Assembly: GCA_034226945.1 (NCBI GenBank)
Contig: CP120459.1
Span: 992,001-1,056,000 of the forward strand
Direction of reading: 5' to 3'
Origin: Picochlorum sp. SENEW3
Lineage: Eukaryota
DNA length: 64,000 bases
In this document: positions 55,300-63,591 of the stretch, in pieces
Numbering within the stretch: the first letter of the stretch is position 1
Layout: every line of letters begins with the position of its first letter
The notes under the pieces: generated by a model
What the model was told of the DNA's origin: nothing
Seen by the model: only the letters and a program-made list of their open reading frames with translations
The model's database searches: none
Made by a program: the position numbers and the translations under genes

Positions 55300-55578
55300 G
55301 TTACTTTTTTGGTACGTAATATGTAATAATAATACAAATCGCAACCTAATATTGATAATGAACTTGTCATCGACGTGGCCTTTGATGACGACAACAGGAT
55401 TCAGGATACTGCGAAATTCAGGCAGTGGTACTGTGAAACAGTAGAATGAAATTCCTTCCCAAGCCTGCGAGTCCTCCGGATGGATATCGTATTGAATTCA
55501 TTGAGTGATCTTTTTCTGTCATGATAGAGACATGGAGGAAGATCTTATCCCGGAATTTGGAACTCGCGTTTGAAGGCC

Positions 55579-56844
55579 ATGGCTCCACCCGCTCACCTGG
55601 AGGTTGAGAACCAACCAAAGAGCATGTACATGTCACAGGTGAAAAATAATGTAGCATTCTGGTTACTTGGTCTGTTAAACAATGCGTCCTACGTTATTAT
55701 GATTGCTGGAGCGGTGAAGATCAGTGCCAGTGCTGTTGGTTTAGTCTACCTGTGTGCAGTCTTGCCAGGGATCATCTGCAAAGCGAGTGCACCGTATTGG
55801 TTCCATAAGGTGTCGTATTCGCGGAGGATGGTTCTTGCCGCCTTTCTTATGGTCATGGCGTTTCTCTTCGTGGGGCTTGGGGAGACAAGGGGGGTCCAAC
55901 TGATTGGTGTGGTATGTGCTGCATTGCAAAGTAGCATAGGCGAAGCAAGCTGTCTTGCTTTGACATCACATTTCCATAGTCAGACATCTATTACAATGTG
56001 GAGTTCGGGAACGGGATTTGCGGGCGTCTTTGGGTATGCTTGGGTTGCCTTTCTGCATGTCATTGGTGGGCTCTCATTTCGATTTACCCTTCTATCAGCA
56101 TTGGTGCTTCCTTTGATATGGGCGTATGTTTTCTTTCAGCTTTTAGAATCCCCGGATGGGCGGACACATATGATTGAGGAACTTTTCACCGGGAATTCTA
56201 TTCTTGTAATGGATGCCCTGGGAGCAGAAGAATCAGAGCCCTTGGCCAGAACGAACGACACAGAGAGGAATTCAAGAAAGCTGTCCGCTGTTGCTCGAAT
56301 GACATTCAAGGAGAAATTTATGTTTGTTCTTGGATTGTGGTCGTATACGGTGCCTTTGTTCTTGGTATATTTTGCAGAATATGCAATGCAGTCAGGTGTT
56401 TGGACCTCAATAGGTTTTCCGGTCGACGATGAGGAGGCACGGCATAGATTCTATGTGTACGCAAACTGGATGTATCAAGGTGGTGTTTTTGTATCAAGGA
56501 GCTCTGGAACAGTGTGGCAAGCGGAGCTATCCATGCTTTGGGCTATGCCAGGCATGCAGGTGGTATTGTTGTTGTTCTTTGGTTGTGTCGCAGTCTATCA
56601 CGTATTGTATAATTGGGGCTTGTTATTACCTTGCTTTTGCACTGGATTGTTGGGTGGAGCAGTGTATGTGAATGCTTTCACATTGATATCAAGAGATGTC
56701 CCTGTTGAGTATAAAGAGTTCAGCCTTGCTGCAGCAAGTGTCTCTGACAGCATAGGTGTGGCTGCTGCGGATGTAGCCGGAATATTACTGCAAGGTTGTC
56801 TCTTCAAGATTAATGGGCTGCAAGGTGCTGATTTTAAGTGCTAA
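55579..56844 (+). CDS. CLN3: CLN3/battenin (Btn1) vacuolar membrane protein
   Basis: AFWLLGLLNN..YVIMIAGA, WSSGTGFAG, PLFLVYFAEY, YQGGVFVSRSS, GLLGGAVYVNAF. Confidence 0.95.
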   Translation: MAPPAHLEVENQPKSMYMSQVKNNVAFWLLGLLNNASYVIMIAGAVKISASAVGLVYLCAVLPGIICKASAPYWFHKVSYSRRMVLAAFLMVMAFLFVGLGETRGVQLIGVVCAALQSSIGEASCLALTSHFHSQTSITMWSSGTGFAGVFGYAWVAFLHVIGGLSFRFTLLSALVLPLIWAYVFFQLLESPDGRTHMIEELFTGNSILVMDALGAEESEPLARTNDTERNSRKLSAVARMTFKEKFMFVLGLWSYTVPLFLVYFAEYAMQSGVWTSIGFPVDDEEARHRFYVYANWMYQGGVFVSRSSGTVWQAELSMLWAMPGMQVVLLLFFGCVAVYHVLYNWGLLLPCFCTGLLGGAVYVNAFTLISRDVPVEYKEFSLAAASVSDSIGVAAADVAGILLQGCLFKINGLQGADFKC

Positions 56845-57037: not shown

Positions 57038-58708
57038 ATGGAACAGGTTGGAATGAACACCTCTGTAGACTCCATAGCTCTTCCGAACAATATTGAGGAC
57101 ATTATCTCAAACTATATACGAACTGAAACACAGATTTTGGCAAAGGTGTGTGTTGGTAGAGCGTCCATGTTGGAACAGTCGAACTGAATGCCATTCATTC
57201 ATTGTTCAGAGAGCCAGGGATACACAAGACTGTCAAGGGGCCCTGGAAGATGTCAATTCATTAAAGCTTTGTTTGAGGCACAAAATCGACAATTTAGAAG
57301 ATCACAAAGACTATGTGGCTCGAGAGGTACGGCGCTTTCACGCGTAATATCTCCATGGCGCTCTCTAAAATGTTAAAGTATGGCGCAGGCCCAAACACTG
57401 CAAGATCTTCTCCGTGAGACTCATCGAATGAGCGATCGTATAGGACACGAGATTCGTCTGCGAGAGTATGAGGTTTTCAATATAGTAGCACAGAAGGAGA
57501 GGCAAGATCAGAACATATGTGCATGTTTGGCTTTTGCCAATGTCAACCTGGAGAGACGTGCTCAAGTCACGCTGCTAGAAAAAGCACTGGGACAAGAGCT
57601 CAAGTATCTCACAAAATCTATTTCTGAAAGCTCTATGCATCTCCAGGTAGTAGAATCTGATAAGAAAACAACCTTTACGGTAGAATCCTTCCTGGAACAC
57701 ATGCTTGGAAACAAGATGAGAGCCTTGGCAAAACAAAAGGAATCTGCCCTGGTCCTACGACAACAGGCAGATGTCAAGTTGCACGAAGTGCGTGGACATT
57801 TTCACCAGATCTCTGGAAAAGAACACCAAGCGCGGGCGCTCAAACTGTACCTATCAAAACTGATGACACAATCAAACTCCCTGGCATCTTATCTGAGTGC
57901 ACTTCTGAAACATGTTGGGAATGCTCAATCTTCCGAGACGAGAGGGAACCTGGCCACATACACTATGCCTTCTAATACATCTGCTGAGATACAGAAATGT
58001 GTTACAGATGTTGCCAATTTGATCGTAGGAAACACATCTGGGCCACTTGCCGCCAACAATCTTGTCGTTAAAATGCAGACTGTCCTAAACAACATGCAAG
58101 GCCTTGTCTACTCAAAAGAAAGACCTGAGGACCAAAAATTTGTTCACAAGTGGGAGCAAATTGTGAAATTCGCCTGTGCCTTAGAAAAGGAGTATGAGAG
58201 ACAAACATACTTCAGGCAAAACCTAGAAAAGGATTGTACTGAGGCACAGGCATGCATGGCGACATTGAAGCGATTGGAAAACGAGTTACACTTGCAACAG
58301 GATAAAGTGCGTCAACAGAAGCTTCTGAATGACATGGCCATCATAAAGTCCAGGTCATCTGAATCAAAATCCATCCACCTTATTGAGGATAAGCAGACAA
58401 TCCAGTTCCGGCGTGCATCAGAGAAAGCAAGCACAATGCATGATATCATTGCATTGTTAGATGAGGAAAAGTCTCTTGTCAAGCATAGACAACACATTTT
58501 GACCGCTGTTGAAGAAATGGAAAAGGCCATCTCACGAGACAGCAAAGACAAGAACACATGCCCTGACCATCACCATTCCAACAAAAAGCCTGACAAACAG
58601 TGTGAACACGGCCGAAGCGATGCTACTACAAGAAATTTTAGAATCACCGCATTGGAGTCGCGCTTTAAGAAGTCAATCTTCCAGATGATAGAGAAACAGA
58701 TCAGTTGA
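57038..58708 (+). CDS. Long coiled-coil protein of unknown function, 3 exons
   Basis: Exons about 57038-57145, 57210-57326 and 57389-58708 splice in phase 0; heptad-rich sequence with no recognised domain. Confidence 0.65.
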
Positions 58709-58712
58709 TTGA

Positions 58713-59948
58713 TTACAACTTTTCCAAAACCCTTAATTTTGCACTTCTGCTTCGTACATTTTGTTCTTCCTCTCGTTCGGATGGGCATATTGGTTTCCTT
58801 GTAATAATTTTTGCTGTGGCCGATGACATGTTATCGAATGGTAAGCAGTAGCCTGGCAGAGGAGAGTCGCTTGGAGCCATACCAGCTGCCCGACGAAAAG
58901 CCCACTTTACTATTCTATCCTCCAACGAGTGGAATGTAATAATGGCCAATCTACCACCAGGATGAAGCATTTCTATTGCATCTGGCACCGCGTGAGAGAT
59001 CGCGTGGAGCTCTCCATTCACAGCAATTCGTAGAGCTTGAAATACCCTAGTTGCTGGGTGCTTGGGACTATTTTGCTTTCTATTCTTCCTCTGGTCACCT
59101 CGCTTCTTGCTATACACTCCACCAGGGTTTCCTATTGCATCGACAAGATCTTTAGTCGTCATAATAGGTCGCTCCACCCTTCTATCAGCAATTCTTCTTG
59201 CTATAGATTTCCAGTACCTCTCTTCCCCAAATTCTTTCAGTATCTTCCCAAGTTTGGCTTCAGGCCATGTGTTCACTATCACTTCGGCAGTAACAGAAGA
59301 AGTGGGGTCCATTCTCATGTCCAGCGGACCATCTTTCATGAAACTAAACCCTCGCTCATCTATATCCAGTTGCATTGAAGACACACCAAGGTCTAGCAAA
59401 ATTCCATCAACTTTTTTGTTCGGCACGATGCCCTCATGCTCCAGCTGCACTAAAGTTTCCTTCATATCTGAAAAGTTCCCTCGTATTGGCACCATATACC
59501 TCCCATTTGCAGGCTCTTTCTTTCCTCCATCTCTTTCCCCCAAGTCATCCAAGACAACTGGAGGCAAAACATCTACACCCAAGCCCCTCATGTTTTCTCT
59601 TGCCAGATCGTGCGCCAGAGGATCTTTATCAAACCCTAGAGCCCACTGTAGCTCCTGGTGCGCCTCCAAGATGGCTCGAGAATGCCCACCCGCCCCCAAG
59701 GTTCCGTCTACAAAAGCCCTCAACTCTAGAGGCTGGAAGGCCTCCAACACTTCTTCCAGGAGAACAGGAACATGATGAATATCCTGAGAACCGACACTGT
59801 GAGCAAATGGAGGCTGAACCCTCCAAAAAAGGGCTCTTGTACTTGCCCCTGCCTTGACTTGCGTTCCGTAGCAGTGCCTTGTCCTACCCAAAACCCTGAA
59901 AGACCGACCAGTGCTCCTCACCTGACTGATCCAACTCAATCCAAACAT
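58713..59948 (-). CDS. rsmH: 16S rRNA m4C methyltransferase RsmH/MraW (organellar)
   Basis: HVPVLLEE, VDGTLGAGGHS, DLGVSSMQLD..RGFSF..GPLDMRM, HPATRVFQALRIAVN, FHSLEDRIVK, RSRSAKLR. Confidence 0.97.
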   Translation of the reverse strand: MFGLSWISQVRSTGRSFRVLGRTRHCYGTQVKAGASTRALFWRVQPPFAHSVGSQDIHHVPVLLEEVLEAFQPLELRAFVDGTLGAGGHSRAILEAHQELQWALGFDKDPLAHDLARENMRGLGVDVLPPVVLDDLGERDGGKKEPANGRYMVPIRGNFSDMKETLVQLEHEGIVPNKKVDGILLDLGVSSMQLDIDERGFSFMKDGPLDMRMDPTSSVTAEVIVNTWPEAKLGKILKEFGEERYWKSIARRIADRRVERPIMTTKDLVDAIGNPGGVYSKKRGDQRKNRKQNSPKHPATRVFQALRIAVNGELHAISHAVPDAIEMLHPGGRLAIITFHSLEDRIVKWAFRRAAGMAPSDSPLPGYCLPFDNMSSATAKIITRKPICPSEREEEQNVRSRSAKLRVLEKL

Positions 59949-60015
59949 ATCCAATCCGTGATACACAATCCAAATTCAAATGCATCCGTGGGCCGCTGAT
60001 TTTTTTCTAGATGCT

Positions 60016-60192
60016 CTAGTGCTGTTTCGACTCCAACTTCTTCACAGGTCTGCTACCGCGGATCAGCAATATTACATAAAACAAAAGGGCAGCGATATGA
60101 AACAGAATCAATCCAGCAATGATGGGACGTAAACCGAAACGGGTACCCAGGAACTCGGCTTCAATTTCTTCAACCTCTTCTTTGGACACCAT
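60016..60192 (-). CDS. 58-aa single-TM microprotein
   Basis: MVSKEEVEEIEAEFLG, hydrophobic helix IIAGLILFHIAALLFYVILLI, basic tail KKLESKQH; protein-like composition. Confidence 0.6.
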   Translation of the reverse strand: MVSKEEVEEIEAEFLGTRFGLRPIIAGLILFHIAALLFYVILLIRGSRPVKKLESKQH

Positions 60193-60609
60193 AGTGTCTG
60201 CCACGCCGCAGCCAATGACACTGAATAGTAGATATTACTAATTTTGTCTTTGTTTGTCGGGTATCAGGCATCATTCTCATTGTGAAGGAGACTGTACAGT
60301 GATCATCATCAAAAGAAAGAAGAGCTGCAAAGCTCTTGGGTGAATTCACCCATGCATGGGTCACGATGGGCACATCTTCCCTTGAGAGGATACTCTTGTC
60401 ATATAAAAAGTCTCTGGGGACAAAGAATGGAACGAAACCAAAAAGCTGCGCTCACATGGCAAATTCATGTGGGAGGCTGCAATTGAACTTTCGAAAGAGT
60501 AATTAACGTGTGTGTGTATCCATACAAAGGCAAAAGAATTAGAACTGTACTCTATCTAACAAACAACCCCGGGAACTCTGCATATATCTGGCAGAATGAT
60601 CAATACATG

Positions 60610-60845
60610 TCACTGCACTGAGCAAAAAGAAGCACCAGCATTTGCAGCATCGTGGTCTTCCTGGGTCGCAGCCTTGCATTTGCAACGCTGCTCAATGGGA
60701 ACGCCTTCCAGAGCAAAGTCGATATGCCTGCAACGTATGATTCAGCTGGTCAGTCTACGACGAACAGAAGACTAGTACACTCCTACCTTCCGCAACCGAT
60801 CCAACTTGGTTTCCAGCACTTTGGACAAGGGATTCGATGACACAT
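60610..60845 (-). CDS. 58-aa Cys/His-rich microprotein with C-terminal CaaX (not in ORF track); exons 60845-60787 and 60727-60610
   Basis: Splicing the 59-nt GT-AG intron (60728-60786) gives MCHRIPCPKCWKPSWIGCGRHIDFALEGVPIEQRCKCKAATQEDHDAANAGASFCSVQ*. Confidence 0.85.
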
Positions 60846-61046: not shown

Positions 61047-63398
61047 TTACGACGTCACAAAATCCCTGAGGCTTTGGGGGACATGTACAGCCTTGAGGGA
61101 TTCCTGAAGGGATTCGCCTTGTAGTCTCTCATCTTGCTCTAACAAGGTCGAAAGTGAGGTGTGCAGATCTCTATTGCATGTTATCACATCCTGCGCTGCT
61201 TCTAAAGCTTTTGTGCAGAGAGATCTGACTTCCTGTTCGACAATACTACTCATTTCTCCAGACTCTGCCATGACATACTCGGATCCCATGGCCAGGGCAC
61301 CGACATTGACGGGTCCGATCGCTTGATTCAGCCCAAACTCTGTGACGCATCTCTGTGCTAGTTCAGTGGCTCTTCTCAAATCGTCTGAGGCTCCGGTTGA
61401 GATGGAAGAGCTTGTGATGACTTCTGCAGCACGGCCACCCATGAGAGTTGCTAGCTGTCCTCGAATCTCTGATTCGAAGGCAAGGGCTCTGTCTTCGGCT
61501 GTTGGAGGTGAGTATGTGAATCCCAAAGCTCCTCCTGATCTTGGAATAATGCTCAGACGCTCGGGCTTTGGGACAGTGGGAGCCAGCATACTCACGGCCA
61601 TTCCCACAAGGGCATGTCCAACCTCGTGTCTTGCCACAACAGACCGTTCTTCTCCCTGCAATATACTCCTTTTCTTCTCTATTCCGGCAACTGTTCGGAG
61701 AATTGCAGAGTCAAAGTCTTCAAAGCCCACGGCATCCTTGCCGCTTCTTCCGGCAAGGAGTGCCGCCTCATTGACAACATTGGCGAGGTCAGCTCCCGTG
61801 AACCCAATCGTTTGAGATGCAAGACTGGAGATATCAAAGCTTGCATCCAGAGGCAAATTGTTGTTGTCAATATGAACCCGAAGGATTTGTTCTCGGCCGA
61901 TTTTATCAGGTCTTTCGACGGGAACCCGTCGATCAAACCTCCCAGGACGCAACAGCGCTGGATCTAGGACATCTGGCCTGTTGGTCGCAGCTATGCAAAT
62001 GACAATGCCTGAACCCTCCGAATTGAACCCATCTAATTCTGTGAGAAGCTGGTTCAGCGTCTGCTCTCGTTCGTCGTTGCCTGAGCTGCGGAATCCCTTC
62101 ATAGGGGTATCCCTGCCCTTGGCTACAGCATCAATTTCATCAATAAAGACAATTGCTGGTGCATTCTTTCTTGCCTGTGTAAACAGTTCTCTAACACGAA
62201 GAGCGCCCATGCCTACATACAACTCTACAAATTCTGAAGCTGATGTACTATAAAATGGAACCCCTGCTTCACCGGCGACTGCTTTTGCTAACAGTGTCTT
62301 CCCGGTACCAGGCGGCCCAGAGAGCAGCACCCCACGAGGAGGTCTTGCTCCCAACTTCAAAAAGCGCCCTGGTTCCTTTAAATACTCTACAATTTCTTCT
62401 AACTCTTCTTTTGCTTCGTCAACACCTGCGACATCGTCAAAGGTCACGTCCACAAATGCATTTCCCCCCGATGTCCCGCGTTTCACAAATCCTCCACCTC
62501 TGTGGGGCATTCTCACGCCTGCTTTATTCATCACAGACAGAAGCGCGACAAATCCAACCAAGTATAGGAGCGCATTTGCAATATCGCCTATGATAGACTT
62601 TTCAATCACGGTGAAGCGCGTGCCTTTTGTCATCAACGAATCGTAGGGAAGCCTGTAGTCCTTTGGCTTGACAGTCTCAAACCACACGGCTGACTTGTCC
62701 ATGTCCTTGGAAAAGGAAGCATATATACCCGCTTGGTCCTTTAGCCTCATCCGCAACCTATTGCCTTCGACAGCCAAAAATCTAATCTCCTCCTTCTTCA
62801 GAGATTCCAGAAAGTCTGAAAAGGGCAGTTTGACAGTGACGTATCTAGAGGGAGGCAAATACCCAGGAACAGGGCTCTTCTGCAGTGGCCACAGATTCAA
62901 GAGAAGATTGAGCACAATCAAGGAAAAGAAAAACCTCAATGTCGTATTGCCTGGACCACCAAACCTTGAGAGAAATGAGCCCCTTTCGTTCTTTTCTTTT
63001 CGAGTCGGCCTGCCCCTCTTCTGTGGAGCAGTTGTGGTCTCCACAGACAACGACTCCTCCTCCTCCTTCTCGTCGTCGGCCTCCCCGGTGAAAGACCCTT
63101 GCCTTTCCGATTCTAATTCCTTGGAGTCATTCGACTGTCCATTGGAGCCCTCCGCATGGCCCATCTGTCGACCTCTTGTCCTCGCCAACCACATGGAGGG
63201 CCGACCAACGTCACCTCCCAGCAGCCTTCCAGTCGGGCAATACTGGAATCCCATTCCTCTCTCACGCACACCCACACACTGTGACCTCCCGTAAAAGCAT
63301 AACAAGGGTGTCATTCTCTGTCTTTGTCCCGACAGTCCTTGACCACCGCAGAAGCTCTGCAAGGCCACGGGTGGTCCACGACCTCCCCCTACTGGCAT
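61047..63398 (-). CDS. ftsH: Plastid FtsH ATP-dependent zinc metalloprotease (FtsH7/9-like)
   Basis: Two TM segments, [52 protein letters not shown]; start uncertain. Confidence 0.96.
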
Positions 63399-63591
63399 CA
63401 CAGAATATAACATCAACATTAAATCAAATTCCAAGTATGCATGGGCCAAAGCATGCCCAGAGTTTTGAACTGACTTGAATCCTTTTTTGGCCACTTGCAA
63501 TTGCAATGCCACAACCCTCTCAGGCAATGAATGAATTTATGATCTGGCGATTCTACCATATGATACGCTGATGTATTTCATTTTTGAATAG

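Follow-up and report, generated by a model that had tools for sequence, protein, structure and literature searches.

A spliced algal microprotein gene ending in a CaaX box belongs to a cross-domain Cys/His-rich family with a probable link to bacterial persulfide regulons

What is encoded between positions 60610 and 60845 of the window, the whole 64,000-nucleotide stretch of Picochlorum sp. SENEW3 DNA that was analysed here, and what might its product do? An earlier note had proposed a tiny gene at this place, split by a 59-nt GT-AG intron, with a 58-residue product that carries a Cys/Trp/His pattern and ends in the prenylation box CSVQ. We found that the gene is real and spliced from two exons, and that it lies on the minus strand, for which the note had given no indication. 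It is laid out as follows.

60787-60845, minus strand, 59 nt: exon 1 (codons 1-20), with Met1-Cys2, Cys7-x2-Cys10, Lys12, Trp15 and Gly-Cys18-Gly, from sequence, translation and spliced contigs
60728-60786, minus strand: intron of 59 nt, GT-AG (GTAGGA...TGCAG), phase 2, inside codon 20, with an in-frame stop; joint found in runs X2, X6 and X14
60610-60727, minus strand: exon 2 (codons 20-58 and TGA), with His21, a helix, Cys35-x-Cys37, a polar linker and the CaaX box, from sequence, contigs and orthologue
60610-60612, minus strand: TGA stop codon, from sequence
60676-60845, minus strand: conserved family core (residues 1-37, spanning the intron) with candidate ligands C2, C7, C10, C18, H21, C35 and C37, from alignment and AlphaFold2
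60613-60624, minus strand: CaaX box CSVQ, predicted farnesylation site, from orthologue conservation and CaaX rules

Translation of the spliced frame indeed gave 58 residues, among them seven Cys (six in the core and one in the CaaX box), with the ending CSVQ, which confirms the proposed product; read unspliced, the frame meets a stop after 20 codons. When alternative GT/GC-AG pairs were enumerated, the 59-nt pair was the only one that restored the family motif across both exons and the only one seen as a joint in contigs. This joint, with its GT-AG ends, was present in assembled contigs of three of the four runs compared (X2, X6 and X14, from three studies), evidence that bears on the joint and not on expression level or transcript ends. 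Run X1, which spans all bins of the gene, retains the intron with 4 substitutions and several insertions inside it; its differences from the window are mostly intronic, and it probably represents DNA of a related strain. The six exon substitutions listed in the comparison of runs all fall at third codon positions, and five of them are synonymous. The chance level of an ending of the form C-x-aliphatic-[AQSMCLF] is 6 of 1851, counted over the stop-ending frames of the window. One could argue that both frame and intron are accidental, given the small size and the fact that X14 (oligo-dT) is the sole joint-bearing run recorded as RNA, the other two being presumed RNA. However, the joint in three studies, the third-position variation, an intronless orthologue, a paralogue and thousands of homologues all speak against such an accident, and the spliced contigs together with the syntenic position of the orthologue rule it out to the point that its probability is practically nil.

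The orthologue, an intronless gene for 58 residues in a related alga (P0233, locus L150), is colinear with the spliced reading and is flanked by the same FtsH-like, small membrane and RsmH-like genes. Around the window gene, the following neighbours were recognised.

61047-63536, minus strand: FtsH-like AAA/M41 protease, upstream neighbour, syntenic in the related alga; from domain scan and synteny
60016-60192, minus strand: second small gene, 58 residues with one hydrophobic helix, downstream neighbour; from syntenic orthologue and strain differences
58713-59975, minus strand: RsmH/MraW methyltransferase, from domain scan
57377-58708, plus strand: 443-codon frame with no Pfam match in the domain scan
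55528-56844, plus strand: CLN3/battenin-like gene, from domain scan

The downstream small gene has a syntenic orthologue in the related alga (77% identity over 44 residues) and only synonymous strain differences (4 of 4); it gave no Pfam match and showed no sign of a function shared with the microprotein. One X2 contig (60586-61200) links the 3' end of the FtsH-like gene with the spliced microprotein, and another (59900-60236) joins the small membrane gene to the RsmH-like gene. These contigs may reflect bicistronic RNA, which the available text of PMC7896298 describes in green algae, or merged contigs. None of the microprotein's neighbours in the alga (FtsH-like, small membrane protein, RsmH) is tied to sulfur.

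Between the two algal genes, synonymous differences were found in 30 of 40 identical non-Met/Trp codons, and replacements numbered 11 in the 37 core codons and 5 in the 13 linker codons. The last eight codons contain no replacement despite six synonymous changes, which shows that purifying selection acts on the CaaX box in this lineage. Under the established CaaX rules X = Gln indicates farnesylation, so the box is a predicted farnesylation site, and it is quite probable that the algal microprotein is farnesylated. The algal genome (13.9 Mb in 14 contigs, by its gene style apparently that of a compact green alga) holds two beta-type and two alpha-type prenyltransferase loci, which may belong to FTase or to Rab GGTase. 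The same genome carries an intronless paralogue (L129:1492-1644, minus strand, equal to G000:C1 ~248650-248802), 59% identical to P0233, which ends without a CaaX box and has no sulfur genes as neighbours. A metagenome scan that was blind to the tail returned 18 loci of about eight gene types, 17 of them without CaaX and the orthologue alone with it. Among named eukaryotes the box was present in two of eight species, a look-up that is itself biased towards CaaX carriers. The conservation expected of the box thus holds for the nearest orthologue but fails beyond it: CaaX recurs in scattered eukaryotes as an optional, minority trait and is not a feature of the family. In nine near-identical eukaryotic homologues (L135, L137-L141, L145, L146, L148) a Cys stands two, not four, residues from the end, and the intron lies four codons later than in the window gene.

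To which family does the gene belong? We scanned GTDB genomes with a degenerate pattern of the N-terminal motif that required Met-Cys, and obtained at least 127 stretches, mostly with titles of Actinomycetota and a few of Myxococcota, Chloroflexota and Acidobacteria. The bacterial members are stand-alone ORFs of 37-71 residues, most with a ribosome-binding site. Profile searches extended the family to 3031 clusters at 90% identity (1380 representatives at 50%), with the orthologue as top match of the profile search (E 8e-23). Both algal exons align with 44 bacterial members, with the core ungapped, and every core position of the motif C-x4-C-x2-C-x-K-x2-W-x-G-C-G-x-H-x13-C is found in the window gene at family spacing. 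The algal gene is thus an ordinary member of its family. This bears out the statement in the earlier note that similar microproteins occur in bacteria and fungi, since yeasts and a chytrid are among the homologues, but not its view of the gene as the best candidate for an undescribed system in this window; it is rather one of thousands of related microproteins. Among named eukaryotes, members were found in a chrysophyte, three yeasts, a chytrid, a choanoflagellate and a volvocine alga, and under an acanthocephalan record. Sampling of eukaryotes is thin because the three sequence-database searches were dominated by bacteria, and among the matches listed in them we identified no land plant member. 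The family is presumably the one catalogued as PANTHER PTHR34724, which covers uncharacterised small proteins of plants, fungi and bacteria that share this motif. In the literature consulted, mostly main texts outside subscription journals, we found no paper on the family or on the CstR link described below; neither the connection of the family with persulfide regulons nor the exchange of membrane anchors seems to have been described.

The ligand set is conserved across the family. In the 127-row alignment, M1, C2, C7, G17, C18, G19, H21 and C35 are invariant, the invariance of Met1-Cys2 being partly built in because the bacterial scan required it, and C10, K12, T14 and W15 are nearly so. A seventh candidate ligand follows C35 in all 127 bacterial proteins listed, as CxC (70), CxxH (47) or a nearby His or Cys (10). 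Zinc ligands typically show such an exchange of Cys and His. Modelled with AlphaFold2, the orthologue has a hairpin (3-16), two helices (19-25 and 37-47) and a loose tail, at moderate confidence (pLDDT 70.9) and without ligand geometry. Pfam and NCBIfam scans of the exons, the orthologue and the bacterial members gave no family above cut-off, a PDB sequence search gave one chance row only (E 0.13), and fold searches with the orthologue model gave a best Foldseek E of 2.6 and no VIA-align Z of 2 or more. For a model of only 58 residues and pLDDT 71, the lack of a fold match is no proof of a new fold. The ESM Atlas returned only unnamed clusters for one bacterial member and no named cluster for the orthologue. 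CHORD, an automatic UniRef label on one fungal homologue, was rejected on scans of other family members: four of them gave no Pfam match at E<=1, and three gave none at E<=0.01. Bacterial loci often hold two or three close copies (L007, L010, L040, L043, L036, L128), typically one short form and one with an amphipathic tail.

Beyond the core, the members differ in their endings. A tail is lacking in 37 of the 127 bacterial proteins listed, which end at the core. Among the 90 longer bacterial tails, 56 have an amphipathic end pattern (shuffled mean 1.7, maximum 8 in 500), against 35 of 351 neighbouring ORFs, and none has a distal CaaX. We also compiled 340 non-redundant database proteins, 302 of them with tails of at least 10 residues (117 non-amphipathic, 185 amphipathic). 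A Cys at position -4 was present in nine of the non-amphipathic tails, compared with two for the other six last positions (p 1e-6), or six versus two once three tails are removed that had served as inputs or had matched through the CaaX column; it was present in none of the amphipathic tails. One of the nine ends in Glu, which is atypical for a CaaX substrate. This count leaves out two read-through versions of the orthologue, and the core pattern missed a yeast member ending in CVIS. The chrysophyte member (Chlorochromonas danica, P0026) has a bacterial-style amphipathic tail and no CaaX. Since bacterial proteins may be tailless and the algal paralogue lacks the box, the membrane anchor is dispensable.

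The genomic context of the bacterial members is more informative about function. From 80 loci with long flanks (up to 2.5 kb on each side), 7 overlapping ones were removed and 73 were counted. At least one sulfur-detoxification gene (rhodanese, CsoR, MBL/PDO, CoADR, TauE, SQR-like or DsrE) lies at 36 of these, and none of them is near the microprotein at the other 37. With neighbours named by scanning cluster representatives against Pfam (one scan covering 142 of 253 clusters), rhodanese was found at 28 loci, the CsoR family at 21, MBL/PDO type at 15 ("PDO type" resting on the MBL-rhodanese architecture), CoADR at 10, TauE at 6, SQR-like at 3 (a weak NCBIfam match below cut-off) and DsrE at 2; thioredoxin was found at 15. 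From 13 CsoR-family matches in ~23 Mb of five genomes, we estimate that ~0.3% of 5-kb windows would contain a CsoR gene by chance, compared with 29% seen. In all 21 neighbouring CsoR-family repressors both Cys are kept, and the His four positions ahead of the second one is missing. According to the available text of PMC8643695, it is loss of this His that separates CstR from Cu-CsoR, and actinomycete persulfide sensors fall in one cluster.

Operator sites point in the same direction. Of 128 gene copies, 51 have a palindrome, TACCC-n-GGGTA, within 150 nt upstream and the other 77 have no such pattern; among background windows it occurs in 22 of 1705 (Fisher p 2e-46), for a pattern that was written after the palindrome had been seen in a few loci. 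It matches the ScCsoR site, ATACC-n6-GGTAT; in the part of PMC7533328 that was available, S. coelicolor CsoR is a sulfane-sulfur sensor that represses pdo, rhodanese and tauE. Copper-type CsoR genes are also flanked by this palindrome (L151, L153), so the operator alone does not discriminate, and two orphan cases were therefore examined. The two Demequina genomes (G001, G002) each have a single CsoR-family match, which is His-less and beside a CoADR gene. They contain 8 and 9 operator sites versus 1 for a control pattern, and 4 of the 8 and 4 of the 9 precede a microprotein, thioredoxin, rhodanese, CoADR or SQR-like gene. No copper ATPase was seen beside the sites inspected, which were 16 of the 17 (14 of 58 listed ORFs scanned). 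Taken together, these results indicate that the Actinomycetota members are very probably targets of CstR-type (His-less CsoR) persulfide sensors. The context strongly supports rhodanese, MBL-rhodanese, CoA-disulfide reductase-rhodanese, TauE, an SQR-like flavoprotein and thioredoxin as co-targets in that regulon.

Some further sites and neighbours were recorded. Both Demequina genomes have a CstR-type operator site upstream of an aldehyde-dehydrogenase-domain gene (L171, L176), and G001 has another in front of a zinc-ribbon gene (L165). In L025, the Myxococcota neighbour that was considered as a CorE-type copper-responsive sigma factor looks like a generic ECF sigma whose tail is H-x3-C-x2-C, and it is uninformative. 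The algal genome itself contains 18 rhodanese-domain and 7 MBL matches. A single bacterial PDO query retrieved from it only a glyoxalase-II-like gene, identified by reading its sequence, and a single bacterial SQR-like query retrieved nothing; judged from these single queries, the alga seems to be without close PDO or SQR relatives.

How could these observations be accommodated in one function? The best explanation, to which we give close to an even chance, is a zinc-thiolate microprotein that would buffer or carry sulfane sulfur near membranes and be farnesylated in this alga. We favour a zinc-thiol sulfur buffer over a plain metal chaperone because bacterial members sit under persulfide-sensing repressors. 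The protein is built on the ~37-residue Cys/His module of the cross-domain family, in which a membrane anchor is optional. Its core may bind one or two Zn(II) via C2, C7, C10, C18, H21, C35 and C37 or His, and the thiolates could accept sulfane sulfur in persulfide or polysulfide form, with zinc being released or re-bound. A co-regulated thioredoxin or rhodanese would then reset the thiolates, as with metallothionein-3, for which the available text of PMC12618007 describes hold-and-release of zinc and persulfide with resetting by thioredoxin. The tail would bring the protein to the membrane, the site at which sulfane sulfur is produced and exported, and the anchor would depend on lineage: many bacteria would use an amphipathic helix, this alga and some other eukaryotes a farnesyl group. 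The algal protein is most likely a membrane-peripheral zinc-thiol redox buffer; that reactive sulfur is still its ligand is extrapolated from the bacterial members, with a chance that we put somewhat below even.

Three other functions deserve consideration. The core might bind Zn, Cd or Cu and hand it over to, or buffer it near, membrane transporters as a metal chaperone or mini-metallothionein, and the sulfur context would then only reflect metal disturbance under sulfide stress. Such a role would suit the Cys/His ligand swap, the cation-efflux gene next to an operator site in G002, the palindrome beside Cu-CsoR genes, and the P1B heavy-metal ATPase that follows directly on the same strand in L059 and L076, two loci that also have the operator. 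However, a metal ATPase occurs at just these 2 of the 73 loci, compared with 36 that have sulfur-regulon genes; an HMA/CopZ motif occurs at none of the 73, the adjacent repressors are His-less without exception (21 of 21), and the protein has neither an HMA domain nor an HMA fold. We consider a metal chaperone unlikely. It is quite unlikely that the module is instead a structural zinc-finger adaptor with no sulfur chemistry of its own, tethering a sulfur enzyme (PDO-rhodanese, SQR or CoADR) or the repressor to the membrane. The invariant Gly17 and Gly19 and nearly invariant Lys12 and Trp15 do suggest a fixed surface, the membrane tails are optional, and short and long-tailed copies stand side by side in L007, L010, L040 and L043. 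An adaptor should have a partner, yet none is constant, even the most frequent, rhodanese, being present at 28 of 73 loci; many copies are orphans with their own operator, and the alga seems to have no close PDO or SQR relative to tether.

The presence of Met1-Cys2 in 127 of 127 rows brings to mind a sensor of redox state or electrophiles. The initiator Met is removed before Cys, and an N-terminal Cys can act as an N-degron; Cys2, once exposed, might react with oxidants, aldehydes or cysteine dioxygenases, and N-degron logic would make the protein a short-lived signal or scavenger. But part of this invariance comes from the Met-Cys demanded by the scan, bacteria are not known to have the eukaryotic Cys N-degron route, and the other six ligands would be left unexplained, which makes such a sensor very unlikely. 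Returning to the zinc-thiol sulfur buffer, its widest form would make the family an unrecognised cross-domain sulfane-sulfur carrier and a missing member of the CstR regulon, with the same chemistry in eukaryotes and a prenyl group independently replacing the amphipathic anchor in several lineages; this extension is tentative and, in our estimate, rather doubtful.

The matter reaches beyond one algal gene, as the family has thousands of members, found in bacteria, algae, fungi and protists and in at least one animal record, and lacks a domain model and a known function. Their place in CstR regulons provides a direct and cheap functional hypothesis, and genes of 37-60 residues under these operators are easily overlooked. 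If the hypothesis is true, a low-molecular-weight protein buffer would be added to bacterial persulfide detoxification, sulfur and zinc homeostasis would be linked, and two unrelated membrane anchors would meet one targeting need.

Several known systems resemble the microprotein in part. Metallothioneins typically have a Cys content of ~30% and lack an aromatic core. Metallothionein-3/GIF and the bacterial metallothioneins are likewise small and Cys-rich, but the present family has 6-7 ligands, a hydrophobic core, a predicted hairpin and helix and a membrane tail. A metallothionein was rejected on the lack of any Pfam or NCBIfam match, 7 Cys in 58 residues and a nearly invariant Trp. The bacterial tails have what we take to be a sequence likeness to the membrane-targeting helix of MinD. 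In the available text of PMC8155659 the C-terminal membrane-targeting sequence of MinD is a short amphipathic helix that serves as a weak, transplantable anchor; the bacterial tails resemble it, in pattern only, as short C-terminal amphipathic helices, whereas the algal protein has a CaaX box instead. Plant HIPPs likewise combine a candidate metal-binding module with a C-terminal CaaX (here CSVQ-stop), and the earlier note had taken them as a model for a metal- or redox-binding module of different fold. The metal-ligand-like anatomy stands, and so does the difference in fold, as no HMA domain was found and structure prediction matched no known fold. The metallochaperone analogy does not, given the bacterial members in CstR-type persulfide regulons. 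The microprotein is not a HIPP because it has no HMA domain (no Pfam family for exons or orthologue, no fold match), its CaaX is optional and its family spans bacteria and a broad range of eukaryotes, while the available text of PMC10459601 confines HIPPs to vascular plants. The alga appears to have no CstR/ScCsoR regulon (SSN cluster 3 of PMC8643695; PMC7533328), and the accessible text of these accounts names four genes and no Cys-rich microprotein; the repressor type, operator, pdo, rhodanese and tauE of that regulon are nevertheless the same as those around the bacterial members.
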